Positions 4 through 9,902 are shown, counted from the first letter of the stretch. The stretch is 9,902 nt of DNA from Candidatus Iainarchaeum sp. (GCA_028693335.1 JAQUVR010000020.1:1-9902), one strand, 5' to 3'. The notes: generated by a model from the letters alone, not told the origin. Program-made: numbers and translations.

Positions 4-201
4 ATGTTAAATAGGTTAGAGTTTATGAGAAAAATAAAAACAAAATTAAAAAAAGCATATAAATCTAATAAAGAAGGAACAATAGCAATTATTGCAGCAA
101 TATTTGTATTGTTTAGTGCAATGATAAATCCAATATTTTCTGTTGGCATCTCATTTGCTGCTCTTATTGGATATTCTGTATATTTCTTTTCAAAAAAATA
201 A
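4..201 (+). CDS. Small hypothetical membrane protein (Lys-rich N-terminus followed by two hydrophobic helices)
   Basis: The ORF is 65 aa. The segments IAIIAAIFVLFSAMI and VGISFAALIGYSVYFF look like two TM helices. The frame is still open at nt 1-3, so the gene may extend beyond the window edge. An alternative internal Met is at nt 25. Confidence 0.45.
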   Translation: MLNRLEFMRKIKTKLKKAYKSNKEGTIAIIAAIFVLFSAMINPIFSVGISFAALIGYSVYFFSKK

Positions 202-211
202 TTTTTATCAG

Positions 212-237
212 AAAATATGTGTTTTTAAACATATTTT
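212..237 (+). terminator. AT-rich hairpin downstream of the small ORF (possible terminator or regulatory palindrome)
   Basis: AAAATATGT (212-220) pairs perfectly with ACATATTTT (229-237). The loop contains a T5 run. The hairpin sits 11 nt after the stop codon at 199-201. Confidence 0.25.
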
Positions 238-282
238 AAGAATAATATATTTATAGTTACACAAATTTTTAAAAAAAAAAAG

Positions 283-290
283 AGGATGAA
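283..290 (+). promoter_or_regulatory. Shine-Dalgarno-like ribosome binding site for the 294 CDS
   Basis: GAGGATGA lies 3-10 nt upstream of the ATG at 294. It is preceded by a T5A11 tract (266-281) and a TATA-like ATATATTTATAG at 246-257. Confidence 0.5.
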
Positions 291-293
291 AAT

Positions 294-1154
294 ATGTTTG
301 GATCATTTACTAGATCTTGGCAAATAACTAAATTAACATTTAAAATCATGAATAAAGATAAAAGATTATTCTTATTTCCAATATTTTCTGCAATTTTTTC
401 CACATTATTTGTAATTTCTATGATACTACCATCAATTATTTTACCAGGAATTACAACAAATTCAGTGGGTTCTGCAGGAATAAGTTTATTATTAATTTTT
501 GGACTATATTTTGGTTTAGCATTTATTGCAACATTCTTTAATGTTGGTGTTGTATATATAATAAAAAATATATTAGAAGAAAAAAAACCAACGTTTAAAG
601 AATCAATAAAATTTGCATTTTCAAAAATAGGATTAATTATTGGTTGGAGTTTAATTTCTGCAACTGTTGGATTAATCTTAAGAATTTTGGATGAAATTGC
701 TGAAAGAGTTGGTGGAATTGGGGAGATATTTATTAAGATATTAACATCAATGATTGGTGGACTTTGGAGTTTTATTACTATCTTTGTTGTTCCAGTAATG
801 GTTTATGAAAATACAGGGCCATTTAAGGCAATATCTAAATCAGCAACAACATTTAAAAAAACTTGGGGAGAATCAGTAATTAAAACCGCTGGACTTGGAA
901 TCGTTGAGATATTGTTTATTATCTTAGGTGTTGTTGCAACAATATTTGGTCTGATCTTGTTTGTACCACTTGGTGGAATTGTTACAATGATATTTATTGT
1001 TCTTATGGCAATATATTTTGTTTTTATTTTGTGTTTTTTTAGTGTTGCAAACAATATTTATAATACAGCACTATATGTTTATGCACAGACAGGAAACATC
1101 CCATTAGGCTATGATGATAGTATAGCCCATTCTTTTGAAAAGAAGAAAGAATAA
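294..1154 (+). CDS. Polytopic integral membrane protein, DUF6159-like
   Basis: The ORF is 286 aa with an SD-like site upstream. It has about six long hydrophobic segments. From memory, the N-terminus MFGSFTRSWQITKLTFKIMNKDKRLFLFPIFSAI matches the conserved start of DUF6159-type membrane proteins (xFxRSWxLxKxSFxVLxxDKELLLFPxxS). Confidence 0.85.
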   Translation: MFGSFTRSWQITKLTFKIMNKDKRLFLFPIFSAIFSTLFVISMILPSIILPGITTNSVGSAGISLLLIFGLYFGLAFIATFFNVGVVYIIKNILEEKKPTFKESIKFAFSKIGLIIGWSLISATVGLILRILDEIAERVGGIGEIFIKILTSMIGGLWSFITIFVVPVMVYENTGPFKAISKSATTFKKTWGESVIKTAGLGIVEILFIILGVVATIFGLILFVPLGGIVTMIFIVLMAIYFVFILCFFSVANNIYNTALYVYAQTGNIPLGYDDSIAHSFEKKKE

Positions 1155-1179
1155 AAACCTTTTCTTCTTTTTTTCTTTT
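1138..1179 (+). terminator. Hairpin spanning the stop codon of the membrane-protein gene, followed by a T-rich tract
   Basis: AAAAGAAGAAA (1138-1148) pairs perfectly with TTTCTTCTTTT (1161-1171), giving 11 bp with 2 G-C pairs. The loop at 1149-1160 contains the TAA stop at 1152-1154. The hairpin is followed by TTTCTTTT. Confidence 0.35.
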
Positions 1180-1186
1180 GATTACT

Positions 1187-1600
1187 ATGAATGCTTTAGA
1201 TATTTCTGATTTTGAAATAAAAGAGATGAACGATTATACTTTAATAACTCATAAAAATAGTAAAGGAAACACAACATCTTTTGTAGGGTTAGAATTTTTT
1301 GGTAAAAAAACTATTGTTGCTATATCTGTTGATGCAAAAAGATCTCTTATGCACAATAGTTTGTTTTTTTTAATAATTAATCATCAAAAAATACCTACTG
1401 AACTATTAGAGATGGCAAATTTAATTACTGGGGATTATTATCACAAAGATAAAAAAATAGAAATTAGAAGCACCCAAGGAAATAATAAAAAATTTTTTAA
1501 TGAAGTTGTATCCATATTTAAAAAAACAAAACCTGTTTTAAAATCGAGAAATTTATTTCCAAGAATAAAACCTCAAAAAATAAAAAAGAGACTCTTATGA
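1187..1600 (+). CDS. Hypothetical protein (orphan, about 137 aa), translationally coupled to the next gene
   Basis: This is an open reading frame. The track starts it at TTG 1178, and the first ATG is at 1187. Its TGA stop overlaps the next ATG as ATGA at 1597-1600. I recognise no domain. The C-terminus is Lys/Arg-rich. Confidence 0.7.
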   Translation: MNALDISDFEIKEMNDYTLITHKNSKGNTTSFVGLEFFGKKTIVAISVDAKRSLMHNSLFFLIINHQKIPTELLEMANLITGDYYHKDKKIEIRSTQGNNKKFFNEVVSIFKKTKPVLKSRNLFPRIKPQKIKKRLL

Positions 1601-2496
1601 AACCACCAATGAAAAAAGCAAAGATAGATTATCATCAATTTATAAGAGAATTGTCTAATCATAATCAAGGGAAAAAACCAGAACTACCAAAAGAATTAGA
1701 AAACAAATTAAGAAAATTAACTCAAGAAGAATTTCATGATCTAAGACATAATGGCTCATTTGCAAGAATATTTGAAAAATTAAAAGATAGTTTTGCAATT
1801 CAAAGAATTGAAGATCATATTAAATCTAGACAAAATAACAAGGCAGTGCGTAATTTTCATATAATAAAAAATAAATCAAAAAACAAAGGCGAGCGAACAT
1901 TTTTAGTTTATAAAGATGGAGTTCTTTATAGAAATGTTTCTCCAGGTACTTTTTTTATTTGGAAGAGATTACTTGACAAAAAAATTTCTGTTGAACCAAT
2001 TGTTGGTGGTGCTAGTAAAGCAGAAATAAAAGCTCTTGAAAAAATAGGTTGTTTTTTAGAAGAAGGAGATTTATTAATAAAATCTGAACCTGTTGGGGTT
2101 TCTTTTGCCTTACATCCAGATCACCCAAATACAAGGGTTAACACTTTAGAAACACTATTGAAAAGCAATTTAGTTAATAAATTAACTACAGATCAGAAAA
2201 TGAGTTTAACAAGACAAATAATAAAAACAATAACTAGTGTTTGGCAAGAAGGGTATGTTCATAAACACCCACATCTTGGTAATTGGGCTGTTGAATTTGT
2301 AAAGGGAGAACCAAAAGTTACATTGATTGATATGGATGGATTGAGTAAGATTAATTGGGGTCATCTAGCAACATCTCCTATTTTAGATCATGGTCAAGTA
2401 AAAGAAATAATCAAAGAACTAAGATTACCAAGAGAATATTCAAAAATTGCATATTCTTTATTAGATAAAAAATTAAGCCAAGTAAGTAAAAAATAA
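1597..2496 (+). CDS. Protein-kinase-like-fold protein, paralog 1, with a degenerate catalytic loop (HKHPHLGNW, IDMDG)
   Basis: The ORF is 299 aa. GYVHKHPHLGNW (loop at nt 2260-2286) aligns with the HxDxHxGN / HADPHPGN catalytic loop of APH, Kdo-kinase and UbiB-ABC1 type kinases, but has His where the catalytic Asp should be. VTLIDMDG (2326-2340) sits about 20 aa downstream, where the DFG-equivalent is expected. By eye, roughly half the residues are identical to the next ORF. Confidence 0.85.
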   Translation: MKPPMKKAKIDYHQFIRELSNHNQGKKPELPKELENKLRKLTQEEFHDLRHNGSFARIFEKLKDSFAIQRIEDHIKSRQNNKAVRNFHIIKNKSKNKGERTFLVYKDGVLYRNVSPGTFFIWKRLLDKKISVEPIVGGASKAEIKALEKIGCFLEEGDLLIKSEPVGVSFALHPDHPNTRVNTLETLLKSNLVNKLTTDQKMSLTRQIIKTITSVWQEGYVHKHPHLGNWAVEFVKGEPKVTLIDMDGLSKINWGHLATSPILDHGQVKEIIKELRLPREYSKIAYSLLDKKLSQVSKK

Positions 2497-2512
2497 AATA
2501 AGAGAATTACTA

Positions 2513-3436
2513 ATGTTAAAATTATTTAAAAAAAAACCAAAAGTAATGAAATATGAATCCTTTTTAACAGAACTTAGTAAATATAATCAGGGGAAAAAAC
2601 CAGAGCTACCTAAAGAACTTAAAAAAAAGTTAGAACAATTAAGTCAAGAAGATTATAATAGACTAAAAACAAATAAAAACTTTTCAAGAATATTTAATCA
2701 ATTAAAAGACACTTTTGCAACTCAAAAAATTGAAGATTCTATTAAATCTAAGGAACACAGAACAAGAATAAGAAACTATCATGTAATAAAAACTCAATCT
2801 CTGCGCGAAAATTTTTTAAATCCTGATCCAACATTTTTAGTTTATAGGGCGGGAGTGTTATATAGGAATTTGTCAAATAAAAAATATCAATTATGGAAAG
2901 AATTATTAGATAATGGCATATCTGTTGAAAAAATAATTGGTGTAGCAACAGAAAGAGAAATAACAGAATTAGAAATGGCTGGTTGTAAGTTAGGTCCTGG
3001 AGAAATAATGGTTAAATCTAAGGCTGCTGGAATGACTTTAGATCTACATCGTCAACATCCAAATCCAAAAATAAATACTATTAGCACATTAATAAAAAGT
3101 GAACTACGAAAAGATCTTAGTATTGATCAAAAAATGAGCATAGTGCGTCAAGTAATAACAACAACAAGTCAAATTTGGGATTTAGGTTATATGCATTATC
3201 ATCCACATTTAGGAAATTGGGCCATTGAATTTAAAAATGGGCATCCAAAAGTTACATTAATAGATTTTGATATGATTACAAAGATATATTCAAAAAAATT
3301 TAATCAAAATCCATATAATTATGATTATCAATCTTTAAATGAAATAATTAGATCTTTTAATCTCCCAGAAGATTACAGAAATAAGGCAATTAATTTATTA
3401 AATAGAAAAATAAAAAAAGCAGTAATACGAAAATAA
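2513..3436 (+). CDS. Protein-kinase-like-fold protein, paralog 2, with a degenerate catalytic loop (HYHPHLGNW, IDFDM)
   Basis: The ORF is 307 aa and is collinear with the previous protein along its whole length. Shared blocks include NQGKKPELPKEL, FLVY+xGVLYRN, DQKMS and HPHLGNWAxEF. The loop is at nt 3194-3220 and IDFDM is at 3260-3274. An alternative start at ATG 2546 (M12) would align better with paralog 1. Confidence 0.85.
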   Translation: MLKLFKKKPKVMKYESFLTELSKYNQGKKPELPKELKKKLEQLSQEDYNRLKTNKNFSRIFNQLKDTFATQKIEDSIKSKEHRTRIRNYHVIKTQSLRENFLNPDPTFLVYRAGVLYRNLSNKKYQLWKELLDNGISVEKIIGVATEREITELEMAGCKLGPGEIMVKSKAAGMTLDLHRQHPNPKINTISTLIKSELRKDLSIDQKMSIVRQVITTTSQIWDLGYMHYHPHLGNWAIEFKNGHPKVTLIDFDMITKIYSKKFNQNPYNYDYQSLNEIIRSFNLPEDYRNKAINLLNRKIKKAVIRK

Positions 3437-3443
3437 TATTTTT

Positions 3444-3450
3444 GAGGTGA
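3444..3450 (+). promoter_or_regulatory. Strong Shine-Dalgarno site (GAGGTGA) for the kinase-deaminase fusion gene
   Basis: GAGGTGA is complementary to the conserved 16S 3' tail (anti-SD CCUCC core) and lies 5 nt upstream of the ATG at 3456. The GTG at 3447 used by the ORF track lies inside this motif, so it is unlikely to be the real start. Confidence 0.7.
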
Positions 3451-3455
3451 AAAAT

Positions 3456-4544
3456 ATGATAGTTGGAATAACAGGGTTTTTAGCATCAGGAAAAGGAGTA
3501 GTATCAGAATATCTTAAAGAAAAAGGTTTTATAATTTATTCTTGTTCAGATGAAATAAGAGAAGAATGTAGAAAAGAAAATATAGAAATAACCAGAGATA
3601 ATTTGCAAAAAACAGGAAATCTTTTAAGAGAAAAATTTGGGCCTAATATTTTAGCAAAAAGATTATCTGATAGAATAAAATTAAAAGGTTTGGAAAATAA
3701 TTATGTTATTGAATCAATAAGAACTGAAGGAGAAATTAATGAATTAAAAAAATTATCAAAATTCAATTTAATTTTTATAGATGCTGATGAAAAAACAAGA
3801 TATCAAAGAGCGAAAGAAAGACTAAAAGAAAAAGAACATATTGATAGTTTTGAAAATTTTTTAGCTTCAGAAAAAAAGGAAATGAATAATGCTGATCCAA
3901 ATGCTCAAAATCTTTTAAAATGTAAAGAATTATCTGAATTTATATTAGATAATAATGGATCAATTGAAGATCTAAAACACCAAATAGAAGATCTTTTATT
4001 AAATATTCAAATAAAACAAAGAACAAAACCAGATTGGGATGAATATTTTTTAAAAATTGCAGAAGTTATATCATTAAGAGAAAGTTGTATTTCTGCAAGA
4101 ATTGGTGCAGTTATAACAAAAGACAATGTAATTAAATCAACAGGATATGCTGGTGCACCAAGGGGAACAAAAGACTGCTTTGAAAAAGGATATTGTCTTA
4201 GACGAAAATTAAATGTACCATCTGGTCAACAATATGAACTTTGTGCAAGTGTCCATGCAGAGCAAAATGCAATAATTAACGCTGCAAGAGATGGTGTCTC
4301 GATATTGGGTGGGACACTTTATATTGTTGGTAAAAAAACTTATCAAGGATTAGAAAAGCCAATAGATGCATTTCCTTGTTTTATTTGTAAAAAAATGATT
4401 ATTAATGCAGGCATAAAAAGAGTAGTTTGCTCAACTGCTGATGCAAAATATAAAGTGTTTTTGGTAGAAGATTGGGTAAGAGAATGGCAAAAAGAAGACA
4501 TTATAAATGACAAGGATAAATATGGTACAAATTATTCAAAATAA
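3456..4544 (+). CDS. Fusion protein: N-terminal P-loop nucleotide kinase-like domain (dephospho-CoA-kinase/UPF0200-like) plus C-terminal dCMP/cytidine deaminase domain (ComEB-type)
   Basis: The Walker A motif GITGFLASGKG is at nt 3465-3497 and the N-terminal half looks like a kinase. The C-terminal half, from about nt 4026, carries WDEYFLKIAEVISLRESC, the zinc motif HAE (4254-4262, CASVHAEQNAI) and PCxxC (4374-4388, PCFICKKMIINAGIKRVV). Together these are the canonical dCMP deaminase signature. Confidence 0.9.
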   Translation: MIVGITGFLASGKGVVSEYLKEKGFIIYSCSDEIREECRKENIEITRDNLQKTGNLLREKFGPNILAKRLSDRIKLKGLENNYVIESIRTEGEINELKKLSKFNLIFIDADEKTRYQRAKERLKEKEHIDSFENFLASEKKEMNNADPNAQNLLKCKELSEFILDNNGSIEDLKHQIEDLLLNIQIKQRTKPDWDEYFLKIAEVISLRESCISARIGAVITKDNVIKSTGYAGAPRGTKDCFEKGYCLRRKLNVPSGQQYELCASVHAEQNAIINAARDGVSILGGTLYIVGKKTYQGLEKPIDAFPCFICKKMIINAGIKRVVCSTADAKYKVFLVEDWVREWQKEDIINDKDKYGTNYSK

Positions 4545-5321
4545 TTATTTAGAGAATATAATTTTATCATAATTTCTATTAACAATATTTTCCATTTCTT
4601 TTAATGTTGTTAAATATTCTCTATACATGTTTTCTAAATGTTTAAATTTGATTTTAATATCTGGATTTAGAACATAAGAAACATTTATGCCCATTTTTTT
4701 ATATTTAAACATCTGTGCAATTTTAATTAACATGTTTTGAATACTTATTTTTGTTTTTTTCTTAGAAATCACTCTGTATTTCTGGTTAACAATTTTATTT
4801 ATTACTTGATTTGCAAGTTTGAAAAAAAGTAATTTCGTTTTATTTACATTAATTTGAGAAATATATTTTTTTGTATTCTTTTTATCATATTCTTTAATAA
4901 TATTTTTTAGTAATTTTTTTGGGAAATAGGGAATAATAATTTTGGCTTTTTCAAATTCTGCATCTAAATAACATTCACAGATTGAATGTTCTATTGAATA
5001 ATAGATGTTTTTTTTGTGAAAATAATTGTGAATATTTCTATCTAATAAAAAATGAGAAATAAATCCAATTGCAAAACAAATTTCTTTTTTTGTTTTTGCA
5101 TTAATTAAAAGTTTTTCTCCAAAATCTAGTCCATTATTGTCTTGATGAAGAAAATGACTTAAATTAGGATATTTATTATAATCTTTAATTTGAGTAAAAT
5201 AAAACAAATCCGGATAAATTGATCCACTCATTAAATAATTAAGATCTTTTTTTGTAAATAATTTGGGGTGTTTGTCTTTAATTTCTTTAATAAGTGCCAT
5301 GTGTGTTAATATGCTTGCCAT
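4545..5321 (-). CDS. Zinc-dependent phospholipase C / P1-nuclease superfamily protein, paralog A
   Basis: The ORF is 258 aa. The metal-ligand pattern is in the order typical of the family: N-terminal ILTH, YPD, SHFLH, SHFLLDRNIH (HxxxDxxxH) and EHSICE (HxxxE). There is no signal peptide. A Lys-rich C-terminal half of about 130 aa has no recognisable domain. Confidence 0.8.
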   Translation of the reverse strand: MASILTHMALIKEIKDKHPKLFTKKDLNYLMSGSIYPDLFYFTQIKDYNKYPNLSHFLHQDNNGLDFGEKLLINAKTKKEICFAIGFISHFLLDRNIHNYFHKKNIYYSIEHSICECYLDAEFEKAKIIIPYFPKKLLKNIIKEYDKKNTKKYISQINVNKTKLLFFKLANQVINKIVNQKYRVISKKKTKISIQNMLIKIAQMFKYKKMGINVSYVLNPDIKIKFKHLENMYREYLTTLKEMENIVNRNYDKIIFSK

Positions 5322-5324
5322 CTG

Positions 5325-6086
5325 TTATCTTTTTTTAATATTTACTGCATTATCAAAATTTAATGCGAAAAATTTCTTTTTTGCAATATTATATTCATTA
5401 GTTAGATCATATAAATATTTTTTTTTAATCTCTGCTTTTGGATAAATTATTTCATTAATGTCAGATTTCATTTTAATTGCGTGTTTTTTACCAAAATGAT
5501 ACATTAAAACATCTAAAAAATAAACTTTTTTTGAATTGTCTGTGTTTCTGTATTTTTTTGTTACTAGGTGTTTTTGAATTATATTATTTACTATAGAAAA
5601 ATAATATCTTCTTTGTAAAACACTTGTAAAATAATTTTTAGAAATTTCCGGATATTCGTGTTTTAGTACTCTGTTAATTAATGCTTTACAATATTTTGGC
5701 ACAGGAATGTTTTTATTTTTAAATTGTGCATCTAAGAAAAATTCACACACTGTGTGATAAACAGATTTTTTGATTTTTTTTTTTGTAAGATAACCGTGGA
5801 TTTGATTATCTAAAATAAAATGTGACATAAAACCAATAGCAAAAGATCTTTCTTTTTTATTTTTACTATACTCTAACATTTTTTTGCCAAACATAAATCC
5901 ATTTTTGCCAGTGTGCCAAAATCTGCTTAGATTGTCATCAGGTGTGTGATGATAACATAAAAATAAGTTAACATCTGGAAAAACAGCTCCAGAATATAGA
6001 TAAGCTTTATCTAAATGTTCAAATTTTTTTTTTTGTTCAACTAAACTTTCAGAAATTAATGAAAGGTGGGTAATTATTCCGGCCAT
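5325..6086 (-). CDS. Zinc-dependent phospholipase C / P1-nuclease superfamily protein, paralog B
   Basis: The ORF is 253 aa and is collinear with paralog A: IITH, FPD, RFWH, SHFILDNQIH, YHTVCE. Its stop is only 3 nt from the paralog A start codon. It contains two T11 (Lys-codon) homopolymers at 5774-5784 and 6024-6034. Confidence 0.8.
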   Translation of the reverse strand: MAGIITHLSLISESLVEQKKKFEHLDKAYLYSGAVFPDVNLFLCYHHTPDDNLSRFWHTGKNGFMFGKKMLEYSKNKKERSFAIGFMSHFILDNQIHGYLTKKKIKKSVYHTVCEFFLDAQFKNKNIPVPKYCKALINRVLKHEYPEISKNYFTSVLQRRYYFSIVNNIIQKHLVTKKYRNTDNSKKVYFLDVLMYHFGKKHAIKMKSDINEIIYPKAEIKKKYLYDLTNEYNIAKKKFFALNFDNAVNIKKR

Positions 6087-6108
6087 GGTGTATCATTTTT
6101 TAATAAAA

Positions 6109-6116
6109 TATTTAAA
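6109..6116 (-). promoter_or_regulatory. Candidate archaeal TATA box for a leaderless PLC-like gene pair
   Basis: The minus strand reads TTTAAATA, centred about 27 nt upstream of the ATG at 6086, and there is no SD-like sequence in between. Specificity is low because the DNA is so AT-rich. Confidence 0.25.
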
Positions 6117-6155
6117 TAAGAGTTAACATAACATTTTAAAATTATTAAAGTTTAT

Positions 6156-7352
6156 TTATTTTCCAGAAATAATTTCAATTACGTCGTTGTTTTTTAGTAA
6201 ATGTTCTTTACCAAGAAGCATTTTTGTTTTAACATCAACAGCTTTTATAAAATTATTACCAAAATCAGTATGTAATTTATAAGCAAAATCTAAAGTTGTT
6301 GACTTAGGGGGCATTAAAAAACAATCTGGCAAAACATTTCCATTTTTGTCTTTTAGGCTTTTAGTTCCTCCAGGGTATATTGCCATATATTTTAATACCT
6401 CAAATGCTACAAAATCCACAATTTCTTGGACGCCAGTAGATTTGTGTTTATCTAATATGTTTTTTTGAATAAATTTTAATGCTTCTAATTGTTTTTCAGG
6501 TATGTCCTCTTTTAATATTTTAAAAGAATTTGATCCTGGTAAATATTCAACAATTTTATTTTTGTCTGCTGACTTTAAAGCAAGTTCTGCTTCAGCACAG
6601 CAACCAATTATTTTTATATTTGGAAATTTCTCTTTAATTTCATCTAATTTTTTATTATTTGTTAATAAATCTATTTTGTTTGCTGCAATAACTATTGGTT
6701 TAGTTTTTTCTCTAATTTTTTTAGTGAAATTTAATAATTCTGTTTCACTCCAAGAGAGAACATCTTTATCCTGTAGATTTAAACTTTTTAATGATTGATC
6801 TAATATTTCTTCATTAACGCCCATTCCACTCATAAAAGACAAAAGGGTATTTAATGTTTTTATTTTTCTAACTTGTTGTTCTCTTCCAAGCTTTTCGAAA
6901 TTCTTTTTAAATATTCCAAGTAGCCAAGTTTCTATTTCAGTCAATAAAAAATCAATTTCATTTGCTGGATCATAACTACCTAAGGGAACTGGTCTTCCTT
7001 CTTCATCAGTAGATCCAGAAATATCTATTACTTGTATTAATGCTTGTGCTTGATATAAATCGGTTAAAAATTTATTACCAAGACCTCTTCCTTCACTAGC
7101 CCCTGGAACTAGTCCAGCAACATCAATAATATCTACTGGTATAAATCTTATATGTTCTTTACAAAATCCATGTCTTGGGTTACATTGAGTATTAAAAAAA
7201 CTATCAACACAATTATTTCTAACAAAACCAATACCTTTATTTGGATCTATTGTAGTAAATGGATAATTTGCTGATTCTGCATCCATTAATGTTAATGCCT
7301 TAAAAAATTTAGTTTTTCCTTTATTGGGTGCGCCCACTAATCCTATCATCAT
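6156..7352 (-). CDS. Obg-family (YchF/DRG-related, MJ1332-type) GTP-binding protein with a C-terminal TGS domain
   Basis: The ORF is 398 aa. Motifs seen are G1 GAPNKGKT (nt 7311-7334), G2 YPFTTIDPN, G3 DVAGLVPGASEGRGLGNKFL and G4 NKID. G4 is the GTP-specific NKxD, not the NxxE of bacterial YchF. The C-terminus DFAYKLHTDFGNNFIKAVDVKT...DVIEI is typical of a TGS domain. Confidence 0.9.
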   Translation of the reverse strand: MMIGLVGAPNKGKTKFFKALTLMDAESANYPFTTIDPNKGIGFVRNNCVDSFFNTQCNPRHGFCKEHIRFIPVDIIDVAGLVPGASEGRGLGNKFLTDLYQAQALIQVIDISGSTDEEGRPVPLGSYDPANEIDFLLTEIETWLLGIFKKNFEKLGREQQVRKIKTLNTLLSFMSGMGVNEEILDQSLKSLNLQDKDVLSWSETELLNFTKKIREKTKPIVIAANKIDLLTNNKKLDEIKEKFPNIKIIGCCAEAELALKSADKNKIVEYLPGSNSFKILKEDIPEKQLEALKFIQKNILDKHKSTGVQEIVDFVAFEVLKYMAIYPGGTKSLKDKNGNVLPDCFLMPPKSTTLDFAYKLHTDFGNNFIKAVDVKTKMLLGKEHLLKNNDVIEIISGK

Positions 7353-7358
7353 ATATAA

Positions 7359-8507
7359 TCATTTTAATCCATATTGATTATTTGCAAATTTAGTAATTGA
7401 TTTGATTTCAACAAGGTTCTCTTTAATTAGTTTATTTACTAAATATCTTGCGCCTTGTCTAGTCATTTTTAATTTTTCTGATAATTCATTTACTGTTAAA
7501 TTTGTATTTTTCAGTTCATATAATATTTTTTCTTTGTTACCTTTTATATATCTTTTTGGTTTATTTTGTCTTTTTATAAATTGTTTTATTTTATCGCCTT
7601 TAAAACCCAAATCAATTTCAGGATATTCTTTTAATAAATTACAATAATCAGCATAGAATTTGCCTAATCTTTTAGATAGAATATATAAACAAAATATTCC
7701 TTCTTTTCCTGGTTTTATTGTGCTTATATAATTTAAGTCATTACATAGATTATGTAAATCTGTAATTAATTCTTTGTTTTTTAATCTTATTATAATTAAA
7801 TCTGAATCTATGTGTCCTTCATCTATAATAATTCCAATTAAAAATGCTAACTTGTGTTTCCAATTTTTATTAAATAAGGCTATCGGTATTCTTGCGGTTT
7901 CTGATTTAAAACTATTTGTATTTAAGTTATATATTTTAAAAAACCACTCAGAACAAGTAACAGGAGAATATATTTTAGTTGTTTTATCATTTTGGATATA
8001 ATCTTTTTTATAAATTACATTTCCAAAAATACTCTCGATTTTTTTAAGATATAAAAATCTATATTTTTTATTAAATTGACGATATCCAAAATAAGGAGTT
8101 CTGTTTTTACCATTTATTACAGTTCCGTCTCCAATGTGGTGAGCAATAAGCATATCAAATACTGGGGTTATTTTTATTGGCAATTTTGGATTAATTATCA
8201 TATTTTTGCCTTTTCTACTTTTATAGGCTATAATGTTTTTTTGTAATTGTTTATTCGAAATATTTAATATTTTACAAAGAGACAATATTATTTCTAGATC
8301 TATAAAAGATTTGTGTGCTTTTTTTAATTTGACACAGAAAGTAGAAAAAGGGCAATTTGTATATTTTAATAATTTTTTATAGATTTTTTTTTTATTTTTA
8401 TATTTTTCAGATATTTTTTTATTTATGAGTAATAAAAAAGCTTTTTCTAATTTTATATTTATTTTTCCCTCAAATTCCCAAATATTTACTATATAAGAAT
8501 TTTTCAT
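7359..8507 (-). CDS. Free-standing double-motif LAGLIDADG homing-endonuclease-like protein with a C-terminal winged-helix DNA-binding domain
   Basis: The ORF is 382 aa. Two LAGLIDADG-type motifs lie about 100 aa apart: MLIAHHIGDGTV (nt 8118-8153) and LAFLIGIIIDEGHI (nt 7809-7850). Both keep the acidic residue (D and E). The C-terminus LTVNELSEKLKMTRQGARYLVNKLIKENLVEI (about nt 7392-7532) looks like a MarR/ArsR-type wHTH. The gene is not embedded in an intron or an intein host gene. Confidence 0.8.
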   Translation of the reverse strand: MKNSYIVNIWEFEGKINIKLEKAFLLLINKKISEKYKNKKKIYKKLLKYTNCPFSTFCVKLKKAHKSFIDLEIILSLCKILNISNKQLQKNIIAYKSRKGKNMIINPKLPIKITPVFDMLIAHHIGDGTVINGKNRTPYFGYRQFNKKYRFLYLKKIESIFGNVIYKKDYIQNDKTTKIYSPVTCSEWFFKIYNLNTNSFKSETARIPIALFNKNWKHKLAFLIGIIIDEGHIDSDLIIIRLKNKELITDLHNLCNDLNYISTIKPGKEGIFCLYILSKRLGKFYADYCNLLKEYPEIDLGFKGDKIKQFIKRQNKPKRYIKGNKEKILYELKNTNLTVNELSEKLKMTRQGARYLVNKLIKENLVEIKSITKFANNQYGLK

Positions 8508-8537: not shown

Positions 8538-8722
8538 AATTAAATTTATTGATTTAATTTTTTAAGCTATTTTTTTAATTGCAAAATATTTTAACCAGTT
8601 AAAGATTTTCCAACAATTCCTATTAACACAATTAATCACAAAAGTTATAATTTTTAAATAATTAGTATTTATATAATATATATAATAATAGAAAACAATA
8701 TAAAAAGATAGAGATCTTAAAA

Positions 8723-9433
8723 ATGTCAAAACCAAAAATAAATAGAATACAATTAAGACAGCATTATTTAGATATAGCTGGTTTTGAAAAAAAAGAATCT
8801 ATGTTTGTGAAAGTTCCTGGAGAAAAAGAACTTGTTGATATTTCTTTTAAAAGAAAAAGAAATAATATCCAGATGAATAATAAAAAATTTAAAGCACATA
8901 TAAGAGAAATGTGTCAAAAATTAGGAATAACCCCTGAAGAATATGGAAAAAGATTAACCATCATACACACACATAGATTTGATGGATCTAAAAAAAAATT
9001 GAAAGAGAATTACCCATTAACTTTATTTAGTATAGCTGATTTTGCAGATTTTTTTGCAAATCATTTAATTTTTAATACCAGAAAAGAGATTTCTGTTTTA
9101 TATGATATTAATAAAAGAGAACCAATGGGTTATACTTTTATTAGTCTAAGAGAACCACTATTAGGAATTTTAAAGAAACTAAAAATTAAAGCATCAACTC
9201 TAAAACCATTTTTAGAACAAAAAAATGGCCTGGCGTTATATTCTGAATTTCTTTTAGCAATTGATGAATATGAAAATAATTTTTTAAAAAGACTTAGAAA
9301 AAAAGATCCAAATTTAGATTCTAGTGTAGCAAGGTATCTTTTAGCTCAAGAATTAGGAATAAATTTAAGATTTTTGGCTGAAGAAAATTATTATTTAGAT
9401 AAAAATGATCTTTGGTTTCATAAAAAGAGCTAA
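8723..9433 (+). CDS. Hypothetical protein (236 aa orphan) with an HxH...SxxD motif
   Basis: This is a clean ORF with a TATA-like element (8667-8678) 45-55 nt upstream. The only motif I noticed is LTIIHTHRF-(x14)-LFSIADF, which is reminiscent of a JAB/MPN metalloprotease but has non-canonical spacing. Confidence 0.75.
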   Translation: MSKPKINRIQLRQHYLDIAGFEKKESMFVKVPGEKELVDISFKRKRNNIQMNNKKFKAHIREMCQKLGITPEEYGKRLTIIHTHRFDGSKKKLKENYPLTLFSIADFADFFANHLIFNTRKEISVLYDINKREPMGYTFISLREPLLGILKKLKIKASTLKPFLEQKNGLALYSEFLLAIDEYENNFLKRLRKKDPNLDSSVARYLLAQELGINLRFLAEENYYLDKNDLWFHKKS

Positions 9434-9435
9434 TT

Positions 9436-9447
9436 GATTTTTTTATT
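9436..9447 (+). terminator. Oligo-T tract (archaeal-type terminator) after the 236-aa ORF
   Basis: A T7 run at 9438-9444 begins 5 nt after the TAA at 9431-9433. Archaeal RNA polymerase terminates at oligo-dT tracts. Confidence 0.4.
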
Positions 9448-9618
9448 GCGTATATTTTTGTGATATTAATGCTTTTAAATGGCTTTAATCTTTAAAATAA
9501 AGTCAAAAGTTGCTTTTAATTTCAAAATAACGGTAATTAAGGCAAAAAAGATAAAAAAAGAAAGATTATTGCTTTTTTTTAAAAACAAAGCAAAAAACAG
9601 CCAAATCTGACAGATCTA

Positions 9619-9626
9619 TTTATAAA
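9619..9626 (+). promoter_or_regulatory. Candidate TATA box for the 23S rRNA transcription unit
   Basis: TTTATAAA is preceded by the short palindrome ATCTGaCAGAT (9604-9614). It lies about 175 nt upstream of the recognisable 23S 5' end. A start site about 25 nt downstream would fall just before the 9649-9676 hairpin. Confidence 0.3.
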
Positions 9627-9648
9627 CCTTGTGGTGCATATTTTATTT

Positions 9649-9676
9649 ATTCCCTCTAAACTTTTTTAGAAGGAAT
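9649..9676 (+). other. Stem-loop in the putative pre-23S leader
   Basis: ATTCCCTCTAAA (9649-9660) pairs with TTTAGAAGGAAT (9665-9676), giving 12 bp with one C/A mismatch and the tetraloop CTTT. It is relatively GC-containing for this region. Confidence 0.4.
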
Positions 9677-9799
9677 TTGACCGTTTTTTACAAAACACAT
9701 TTACGGGATGAAAGAGTTGGTATTAGTTTGCACTACGTGTAAAAGTAATCATTAAGGTAATTATTCTAAAATATGTGATTTCTTACACAAAACTTTGAT

Positions 9800-9902
9800 T
9801 TTATATAGAGCCAATTAATGGATAACTTGGCTTGTAGACCGATGAAGAGCGTGGCAAGCTGCGATAAGCTTGGGGTAGGCGCATGCAGCCTTTGATCCCA
9901 AG
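9800..9902 (+). rRNA. rrl: 23S (LSU) rRNA, 5' end only. It runs off the window, and the 5' boundary is approximate to about +/-10 nt.
   Basis: AATGGATAACTTGGCTTGTAGACCGATGAAGAGCGTGGCAAGCTGCGATAAGCTTGGGGTAGGCGCATGCAGCCTTTGATCCCAAG matches the universally conserved 23S domain I start (GGUGGAUxxCUxGGC...GAUGAAGGACGUG..AAGCUGCGAUAAGCC..GGGGAG.CGCA....GC.UUGAxCC). It has the archaeal-type CAAGCUGCGAUAAGC rather than the bacterial CUAAUCUGCGAUAAGC. Confidence 0.9.

Follow-up and report, generated by a model that had tools for sequence, protein, structure and literature searches.

Bud32 is one of two kinases common to archaea and eukaryotes. Inside the KEOPS complex it functions as an ATPase and not as a protein kinase, and it is both regulated by and acts on its metalloenzyme partner Kae1 (PMC3814370, PMC8565320). 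Here we examine two adjacent genes, designated paralogs A and B, that reside in a stretch of DNA from Candidatus Iainarchaeum sp. (GCA_028693335.1 JAQUVR010000020.1:1-9902; 9,902 nucleotides, hereafter 'the window'). Profile alignments and a predicted structure support the assignment of A and B as protein-kinase-like domains in which the Asp of the catalytic loop is replaced by His. We regard the two as functional genes of a rare and unnamed minimal kinase-fold family, here called the HxHxH family, whose closest named relative is Bud32.

Kinase-fold proteins that lack the catalytic Asp are usually dismissed as pseudokinases, and several of these, such as SelO and SidJ, later showed new chemistry. 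A second described system that bears on this family is the archaeal minimal iron-sulfur (Fe-S) system MisS-MisU (MIS), which consists of two genes with no additional component (PMC13066941). A search of the literature on His-substituted catalytic loops, on Bud32 in DPANN archaea, and on kinases in isc/MIS operons found no description of the HxHxH family. It has no Pfam or NCBIfam model, and one member (P0007) is misnamed 'Bud32' by IMG. The kinase fold is known; what appears to be new is the rebuilt catalytic loop and the genomic link to Fe-S biogenesis.

Fold and catalytic loop of paralogs A and B

The original prediction, made from the sequence of the window alone, described A and B as adjacent and collinear open reading frames (ORFs) of 299 and 307 amino acids (aa) that are about half identical. 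This description is borne out by BLASTP, which aligns the two proteins collinearly over 297 residues with 48% identity and 69% positives (E = 6e-102). Both ORFs also carry, where expected, the sequence GY(V/M)HxHPHLGNW followed by KVTLIDxD, and both retain every residue that is invariant in the family. The segment NQGKKPELPKEL is likewise present in both paralogs (aa 23-34 of A, aa 25-36 of B). Two contigs from other samples (L001 and L012; 96-97% DNA identity) carry both genes and were used for strain comparisons. The ratios of synonymous to non-synonymous changes are 9:5 and 13:4 for A, and 4:1 and 8:2 for B, all of which are small counts. Synonymous changes predominate, and therefore both copies look like genes under purifying selection.

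The features of the two genes are listed below in window coordinates, with secondary structure taken from an AlphaFold2 (AF2) model of B and its predicted local distance difference test (pLDDT) scores.

1597..2496, + strand: paralog A, 299 aa; N-terminal helical extension plus minimal kinase-like domain (ORF call, BLASTP)
2251..2283, + strand: catalytic loop of A, GYVHKHPHLGN, aa 219-229 (profile alignment to HRDLKPEN, conservation)
2323..2337, + strand: DFG-equivalent of A, LIDMD, aa 243-247; D245 is the invariant metal-binding Asp
2513..3436, + strand: paralog B, 307 aa, with the same architecture as A; a diverged additional copy restricted to the window, L001 and L012
2513..2767, + strand: N-terminal helical extension of B, ~85 aa, including NQGKKPELPKEL (AF2 helices 14-82, pLDDT 63-81)
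2858..2869, + strand: LYRN of B on the predicted beta3 strand, including R118 (AF2 strand 115-121, conservation)
2894..2935, + strand: WKELLDNGISVEKI of B, predicted alphaC helix with W128, then the alphaC-beta4 turn with V138, E139 and I141 (AF2 model, conservation)
3185..3217, + strand: catalytic loop of B, GYMHYHPHLGN, aa 225-235, with H228, H230, H232 and N235 (profile alignment, conservation)
3257..3271, + strand: DFG-equivalent of B, LIDFD, aa 249-253; D251 is invariant, and D253 varies within the family

Searches of Pfam, NCBIfam and PDB sequences with A and B as single sequences yielded nothing significant, B giving only a sub-threshold match to ABC1, and the window proteins had no NCBIfam match even at E<=1. 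A profile built from seven close sequences likewise found nothing in the PDB. A profile built from 36 of the relatives collected by an exhaustive HMMER search (A2) matches the sequences of eukaryotic protein kinases (ePKs) in the PDB, including CDPK1 (1.9e-8) and CK1delta (2.3e-8), and its matches to DAPK1/2 span profile positions 77-255, reaching into the N-lobe. In these alignments, RQ...GyvHgHpHlgN of the family falls on RQ/DQ...HRDLKPEN/HRDVKPDN, and LIDFD falls on IDFG.

An AF2 model of B (me53a3fba9fc1), computed with A2 as the input alignment, has a pLDDT of 83.7 and a predicted TM-score (pTM) of 0.83; a model based on the 7-sequence alignment reached a pLDDT of 46 and was discarded. 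Foldseek compared the retained model with the PDB and returned 1469 matches at E<=1e-3, the best 50 of which are all kinases or kinase-fold proteins with 205-320 aligned columns. The best TM-score is to yeast Bud32 (4ww5_A; 0.45 and 0.57, Foldseek, size-normalised). The original prediction had proposed a profile search and a predicted structure compared by Foldseek as checks on its assignment, and both show a kinase fold. For the N-lobe, the assignment derives from the whole-domain DAPK matches together with the AF2 and Foldseek results. A profile of the N-lobe only found no kinase in the PDB, matching designed repeat proteins alone through a 'G(L/I)sVEe(I/L)' word; these matches were rejected as spurious.

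Conservation was assessed over 62 relatives, with residues numbered as in B and secondary structure from its AF2 model. The N-terminal helical extension (residues ~1-85) is specific to the window clade and lies outside the kinase core, and extensions at this end vary widely across the family. The core begins with beta1 (90-93), a variable non-glycine loop, beta2 (109-112) and beta3 (115-121), the last of which carries Y-R-N. A GxGxxG motif between beta1 and beta2 is absent, with a GG remnant only in four distant members. Position 118 on beta3 is basic in 54 of 55 sequences (R in 42, K in 12), and R118 is the putative equivalent of the VAIK Lys in the model. AlphaC (122-133) includes W128 (56/56) and no conserved Glu, and the alphaC-beta4 turn has a conserved acid, E139 (57/58), between the near-invariant V138 and I141. 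An inserted helix (147-155) is followed by beta5 and a hinge of the form V-K-S-x-x-x-G, in which G173 is present in 61 of 61 sequences, and then by a low-confidence loop (175-186) and by alphaD and alphaE. Residue Q213 (59/61) corresponds to the Gln that ePKs conserve in alphaE.

An additional LH(x)2HPN motif (3044-3064 in B, 2110-2130 in A) occupies the low-confidence hinge-region loop that follows beta5. This motif is conserved in the window clade and partial in P0007 (LHETH), and may represent a second His-rich site.

The catalytic loop has the form H-x-H-x-H-x-x-N, with H228 present in 59, H230 in 58, H232 in 57 and N235 in all 62 sequences. In paralog A, the corresponding residues are H222 (the HRD His), H224 (the catalytic Asp position), H226 (the catalytic-loop Lys position) and N229 (the metal-binding Asn). 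Beta7 and beta8 then lead to L249-I250-D251, where D251 is invariant (62/62). The chain ends only ~55 residues beyond the DFG Asp, in a stretch that forms two helices and lacks both an activation segment and alphaF-alphaI. Lys-rich helices make up the C-termini, and the family has no conserved Cys.

The four sequences with Asp at position 230 are P0015 (HTDLKPGN, a textbook ePK loop), P0053 (HNDLKLAN), P0014 (HTDAHIGN) and P0033 (a shrimp repeat protein). Of these, P0053 passes the Pfam Pkinase threshold and is an ordinary kinase, an outlier of the profile search. Outliers such as P0015 and P0053 tie the family to canonical kinases.

These results agree with most of what had been predicted for the active site. 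The match of the catalytic loop and DFG-equivalent to protein-kinase-like enzymes is confirmed by the A2 alignments, the catalytic Asp is indeed His in both copies and in most relatives, the lack of an obvious Gly-rich loop is upheld, and the conservation of HxHPHxGN holds across homologues in the form HxHxHxxN plus the DFG Asp. For the predicted IDxD, only the first Asp is retained throughout; the second may be D, N, S, K, T or A, and 'DxD' was rejected as a motif. The likening of the N-terminal block to the KxGQ region of UbiB was also rejected, because the block is restricted to the closest relatives, and it has no match to a UbiB N-terminal profile.

The original prediction was also correct in naming the kinase superfamily, but the nearest named relatives are archaeal Bud32 and the ePK core rather than UbiB or APH. 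When the 36 members were scanned individually against NCBIfam, the most common match was TIGR03724 (arch_bud32; 14/36, best 1.1e-7), and the Kae1-Bud32 fusion model matched 8/36. Weak matches in Pfam were to ABC1 (10/36), APH (6), Pkinase (5) and Kdo (5), and all matches in both scans fall below curated cutoffs. The catalytic loop of UbiB is HADPHPGN, whose H, P-H and G-N are common to HxHPHxGN, and the weak ABC1 matches arise because of this resemblance. UbiB/ABC1/COQ8 proteins (PF03109), however, keep the catalytic Asp, and a KxGQ N-terminal domain is not detectable in the HxHxH family. Nor does PF03109 indicate UbiB membership: B scores 17.0 bits where the cutoff is 22.9, and the match covers only residues 204-261 on profile positions 166-220. 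RIO kinases (PF01163) were matched by 1 of 36 members (E = 0.042).

Similarity to ePKs (PF00069; CK1delta, CDPK1, DAPK) is concentrated in the segment from alphaE through the catalytic loop and beta7/8 to DFG, which aligns at E ~2e-8 and shares the alphaE Gln, the HRD His, the catalytic-loop Asn and the DFG Asp. Unlike ePKs, the family lacks an activation segment, an APE motif and alphaF-alphaI, has His in place of the HRD Asp and the loop Lys, and has an N-lobe that is unrecognisable by sequence. With Bud32/PRPK (TIGR03724; PDB 4ww5, 2vwb) it has in common a minimal bilobal fold, archaeal occurrence, an IDF-type metal loop, the catalytic-loop Asn and an abbreviated C-lobe without activation segment or alphaG, the last being a feature of Bud32 (PMC8565320).

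The differences from Bud32 are also considerable. Both the catalytic Asp and the following polar residue are His, whereas D127 of PaBud32 is essential for ATPase activity (PMC3814370), and therefore the His substitution is a real functional departure, not a neutral change. Beta3 mostly carries Arg, there is no Gly-rich loop, and N-terminal extensions are long and variable. The window proteins do not reach the curated cutoff of TIGR03724 or PRK14879, the best member score on TIGR03724 was judged far below equivalog level, the dominant conserved gene context is iscS-iscU and not Kae1, and the family is rare and patchy instead of universal. The HxHxH family descends from the Bud32/ePK branch of the kinase-like superfamily, and by the sequence features, scores and gene contexts given here it falls outside Bud32, UbiB and RIO.

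Distribution, duplication and genomic contexts of the family

When the 7-sequence profile was used in an exhaustive HMMER search, 53 cluster representatives (clustered at 50% identity) emerged at E<=1e-3, 33 of them at E<=1e-10, among 1.84 billion; thus the family is real but rare. A word-indexed homologue search recovered 5 close proteins only, or 4 only when the 36-sequence profile was used, and a genome scan with the closer alignment yielded 3 loci, all in metagenome-assembled genomes (MAGs) labelled 'uncultured archaeon'. All family loci are of low G+C content (21-35%) and lie mostly on archaeal contigs, and one cluster includes a protein from a Candidatus Diapherotrites MAG. Among named organisms, the neighbouring YchF-like GTPase of the window has relatives in Candidatus Iainarchaeum (68% identity) and in Nanoarchaeota and Woesearchaeota MAGs. 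These data place the host among the DPANN-type archaea, in which the family is mostly found. No relatives were found in a scan of viral contigs, and the kinase-like cluster is absent from the neighbourhoods of the YchF-like GTPase gene in relatives at 79% and 68% identity (L024, L025).

One member lies in a Pseudomonadales MAG, and so the family is not strictly archaeal. This gene (L007 4495-6276, + strand) encodes a 593-aa protein with a C-terminal HGHPHLHN...LIDWD domain (hmmsearch 2.5e-15) and a long helical N-terminal region that has no Pfam match. It could have arisen by horizontal transfer or reflect contig mis-binning.

Close relatives of the window differ in their number of copies. The B copy is confined to the window, L001 and L012. 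Three syntenic contigs (L002, L005 and L013) carry one A-like copy only, followed directly by the same deaminase gene that lies downstream of B in the window, and L014 carries a single A-like copy for which the downstream gene was not called. A blastn high-scoring segment pair places window 1133-2519 on L005 5523-6909. In a neighbour-joining (NJ) tree, A groups with P0002, P0003, P0005 and the L005 copy, and it is the ortholog of the gene that sister lineages carry in single copy. B branches before the split of A from these single-copy orthologs. Two histories would fit this tree, which cannot separate them: a duplication older than the split with later loss of B in the sister lineage, or a recent duplication with fast evolution of B. 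The predicted 'ancient duplication kept intact' is thus sustained as a tandem duplication, but its age and integrity are only partly supported, given that it is lineage-restricted, that the four related contigs are single-copy and that the tree fits a recent origin as well.

The NJ tree also contains a sister clade whose members are short (250-268 aa) and lack the N-terminal extension. On divergent low-GC archaeal contigs, these are encoded in operons with the gene order ArsR-helix-turn-helix (HTH) / IscS / X / IscU / 93-aa DUF1858-like gene, where X is the kinase-like gene. Neighbouring genes are separated by 2-7 nucleotides (nt) or overlap by 4 nt. IscS was assigned by its match to Aminotran_5 (E ~1e-84 to 1e-89) and IscU by its match to NifU_N (E ~1e-39 to 1e-45). 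The full operon is present at the following positions.

L006 (equal to L017), 4476-7461: ArsR-HTH / IscS / X / IscU / 93-aa gene
L015, 4456-7329: ArsR-HTH / IscS / X / IscU / 93-aa gene
L018, 4367-7377: ArsR-HTH / IscS / X / IscU / 93-aa gene
L020, 3960-6959: ArsR-HTH / IscS / X / IscU / 93-aa gene

Contigs L016 and L019 show X-IscU and end upstream, giving six isc loci in all. The X proteins of these loci are on deep branches of the tree, and so the iscS-X-iscU synteny is not simply a product of recent common descent. The sister clade therefore resembles MIS in being encoded with an IscS/MisS-type desulfurase and an IscU/MisU-type scaffold, between which X lies. It differs in that MIS is described as two genes (PMC13066941); the window paralogs themselves are not part of an isc operon. 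The literature on MIS and isc yielded no paper that connects a kinase-fold protein with MIS, and the presence of a third gene in this supposedly two-gene unit seems not to have been reported before.

Other contexts are more varied. P0012 (L022) is convergent against an iscS-iscU-95aa unit, and P0009 is flanked on one side by the C-terminus of a Taw1/Tyw1-type radical-SAM gene and on the other by an Fe-hydrogenase-like gene, both of which encode Fe-S proteins. P0029, a 502-aa protein on a 150-kb contig (JGI 3300072015), is encoded 12 nt upstream of Kae1/TsaD, the sole KEOPS-linked context of ~15. Contigs L003, L008, L010 and L023 present contexts without pattern. The window genes are not beside iscS/iscU, and Kae1 was not found in the window or in L001.

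Neighbouring genes in the window

The window is ~25% G+C. A and B lie within a co-directional array on the + strand that consists of a DUF6159 gene, a 140-aa ORF, A, B and a deaminase fusion gene.

294-1154, + strand: DUF6159 membrane protein, upstream of the cluster and kept in L001
1178..1600, + strand: 140-aa ORF of no detectable family (ORF call); its stop overlaps the ATG of paralog A (ATGA)
3447..4544, + strand: P-loop nucleotide-kinase-like domain fused to a dCMP/dCTP deaminase, downstream of B
4545-5321 and 5325-6086, minus strand: a second tandem paralog pair of 258 and 253 aa
7321-8605: 1285-bp segment absent from L001
7359-8507, minus strand: 382-aa ORF combining a LAGLIDADG_3 domain with a MarR/winged-HTH domain at the C-terminus
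8723-9433, + strand: 236-aa ORF of no family

The sequence at the junction of the 140-aa ORF and paralog A is CTTATGAAAC. The stop codon of this ORF overlaps the ATG of A, and therefore its product is likely a co-translated partner of paralog A. An ORF of 138-141 aa is always located directly 5' of the kinase-like gene in the window clade (window, L001, L002, L005, L012, L013, L014). Searches of Pfam and NCBIfam with the 140-aa ORF gave no match, and no homologue was found outside the close clade.

For the deaminase fusion gene, the true start is probably the ATG at 3456, which lies behind a GAGGTG Shine-Dalgarno-like site. Its synteny with the kinase-like gene is seen in L001, L002, L005 and L013 of the close clade.

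The tandem pair at 4545-5321 and 5325-6086 encodes proteins that both match Zn-dependent phospholipase C (PF00882; E = 1.5e-15 and 3.1e-12) and is kept in L001 and L005. The 1285-bp segment that holds the LAGLIDADG_3 ORF is missing from the 96-97% identical contig L001, whose sequence is otherwise collinear on either side (window 39-7320 = L001 8148-15428; window 8606-9902 = L001 15437-16733). The segment has the look of a free-standing insertion of the homing-endonuclease type, placed at the 5' end of a YchF-like GTPase gene, and it includes the first ~10 codons of that gene. The 236-aa ORF has a weak XPA/Rad14-like match (7e-4) and is kept in L001. No tRNA genes were found in the window.

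Proposed function and alternative explanations

We hypothesize, at about even chances, that the proteins of this family are working nucleotide/metal-dependent ATPases or switches similar to Bud32, and not protein kinases. The pocket would still bind a nucleotide-metal complex through R118, N235 and D251. On the basis of known kinase loop geometry, H230 and H232 would face the gamma-phosphate/metal site in place of the usual base Asp and Lys, where they would either activate water for ATP hydrolysis or coordinate a metal. The protein would act on a partner, much as Bud32 acts on Kae1; for the sister clade, the likely partners are the two proteins of the minimal Fe-S system, namely its cysteine desulfurase (IscS/MisS) and its scaffold (IscU/MisU). 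The lineage of the window would have seen this gene leave the isc operon, gain the 85-aa helical extension and the 140-aa upstream partner, and undergo duplication, so that A and B may function together. The conservation data are consistent with this proposal in that His fixed at positions 230 and 232, together with invariant N235 and D251, points to a maintained, altered but working active site and not to decay.

Several observations weigh against a working ATPase or switch. Arg in place of Lys on beta3, the lack of a Gly-rich loop and the loss of the catalytic Asp are classic marks of pseudokinases such as ActPs2 (PMC12599244). The catalytic Asp of Bud32 is needed for ATPase activity, with the D127R mutant being dead (PMC3814370), so hydrolysis may not be possible with His. 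Equating R118 with the VAIK Lys depends solely on the AF2 strand assignment, and the N-lobe profile, as noted above, finds no kinase. The window genes are beside neither iscS/iscU nor Kae1, and the contexts on L003, L008, L010 and L023 are heterogeneous. Moreover, the loci form a small context sample collected with motif patterns, which favours close relatives, and the isc association may hold for one clade only.

Some of these observations would be explained if the proteins were catalytically dead pseudokinases that keep the fold as a scaffold or an allosteric ligand sensor, in which His has a structural or binding role. The combination of beta3 Arg (42/55), no Gly-rich loop and no catalytic Asp has been described for bacterial pseudokinase families (PMC12599244), and variable N-terminal extensions would fit adaptor roles. 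ActPs2 shares the Lys-to-Arg change on beta3 and a substitution of the HRD Asp. However, in ActPs2 this Asp is changed to Asn and DFG is mostly deleted (PMC12599244), whereas in the HxHxH family the metal ligands N235 and D251 are invariant, and the substituted positions are fixed as two His residues rather than drifting, which is the pattern expected of a working site. We consider a dead pseudokinase unlikely, though a serious contender. Alternatively, H230, H232 and D251, with or without N235, might form a 2-His-1-carboxylate-type site for Fe2+, Zn2+ or Ni2+, making these metalloproteins on a kinase scaffold; the isc clade would donate or gate iron for IscU, and the window paralogs would be derived. 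In kinases, D166, K168, N171 and D184 (PKA numbering) all line the phosphate/metal site, and a His-His-Asp(-Asn) cluster at the equivalent positions is geometrically plausible. The six loci with tight iscS-X-iscU or X-iscU arrangements, the two further Fe-S neighbourhoods, and the extra conserved LHxxHPN after beta5 in the window clade would also fit, as would the description of MIS without any accessory factor (PMC13066941). Set against these points are the lack of a conserved Cys, the position of the window genes outside an isc operon, and the retained basic residue on beta3 and hinge Gly, which argue that an adenine/phosphate pocket still matters. This combination of findings leaves a dedicated metalloprotein rather improbable.

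The similarity to Bud32 raises the question of whether these genes are simply highly diverged Bud32 orthologs of these DPANN lineages, the KEOPS subunit that works with Kae1 in tRNA t6A synthesis. The best TM-score, the predominance of TIGR03724 and other Bud32 models among NCBIfam matches, the IMG name of P0007, the position of P0029 upstream of TsaD/Kae1 and the abbreviated C-lobe (PMC8565320) all point in this direction. Yet all Bud32 models score far under their cutoffs, none of them matches the window proteins even at E<=1, the Asp needed by Bud32 is absent (PMC3814370), and Kae1 is found in only 1 of ~15 distinct contexts. The 53 representatives among 1.84 billion were judged too few for a universal archaeal housekeeping gene, and two copies in the window, widely varying N-terminal extensions and one bacterial member also speak against orthology, which we regard as very unlikely. 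Still less credible is an anti-virus defence island in which a kinase-like sensor or effector operates with the adjacent dCTP-deaminase-like gene. The downstream gene does match the PADLOC anti-phage dCTPase model (1.3e-50), its pairing with the kinase-like gene is syntenic in the close clade, and PADLOC also gives weak matches of A to Stk2 (0.0046) and of the 140-aa ORF to PDC-M38A (7e-4). The latter two matches, however, are at noise level (A scores 13.8 bits on Stk2 with no stretch passing alone, and B has no match), and the deaminase, at 117 bits, stays under the cutoff of 400 set for the NCBIfam anti-phage deaminase model, so it may instead serve in housekeeping salvage. The more distant members of the family have no deaminase beside them, there are no relatives in viral contigs, and the cluster is not variable between strains, being conserved in the window, L001 and L005.

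Returning to the Bud32-like ATPase or switch, a bolder extension can be formulated in which we place only low confidence. The HxHxH family might be an unrecognised third component of the archaeal minimal Fe-S machinery (IscS/MisS - X - IscU/MisU). It would act there as a nucleotide-dependent module of the Bud32 type and use its His-His-Asp(-Asn) site to bind iron or to control how clusters are assembled or released on IscU. Paralogs A and B would then be a duplicated and relocated derivative that works with the 140-aa upstream protein. If this is true, X would fill the ATPase/chaperone or iron-donor role that the two-gene MIS appears to lack. The repeated insertion of the sister-clade gene between iscS and iscU provides a concrete and testable lead.

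For annotation, these findings suggest a change from 'hypothetical protein' to 'Bud32-like HxH kinase-fold protein' and caution against naming such genes Bud32. More broadly, a Bud32-related branch with a rebuilt catalytic loop bears on the diversification of that ancient scaffold.

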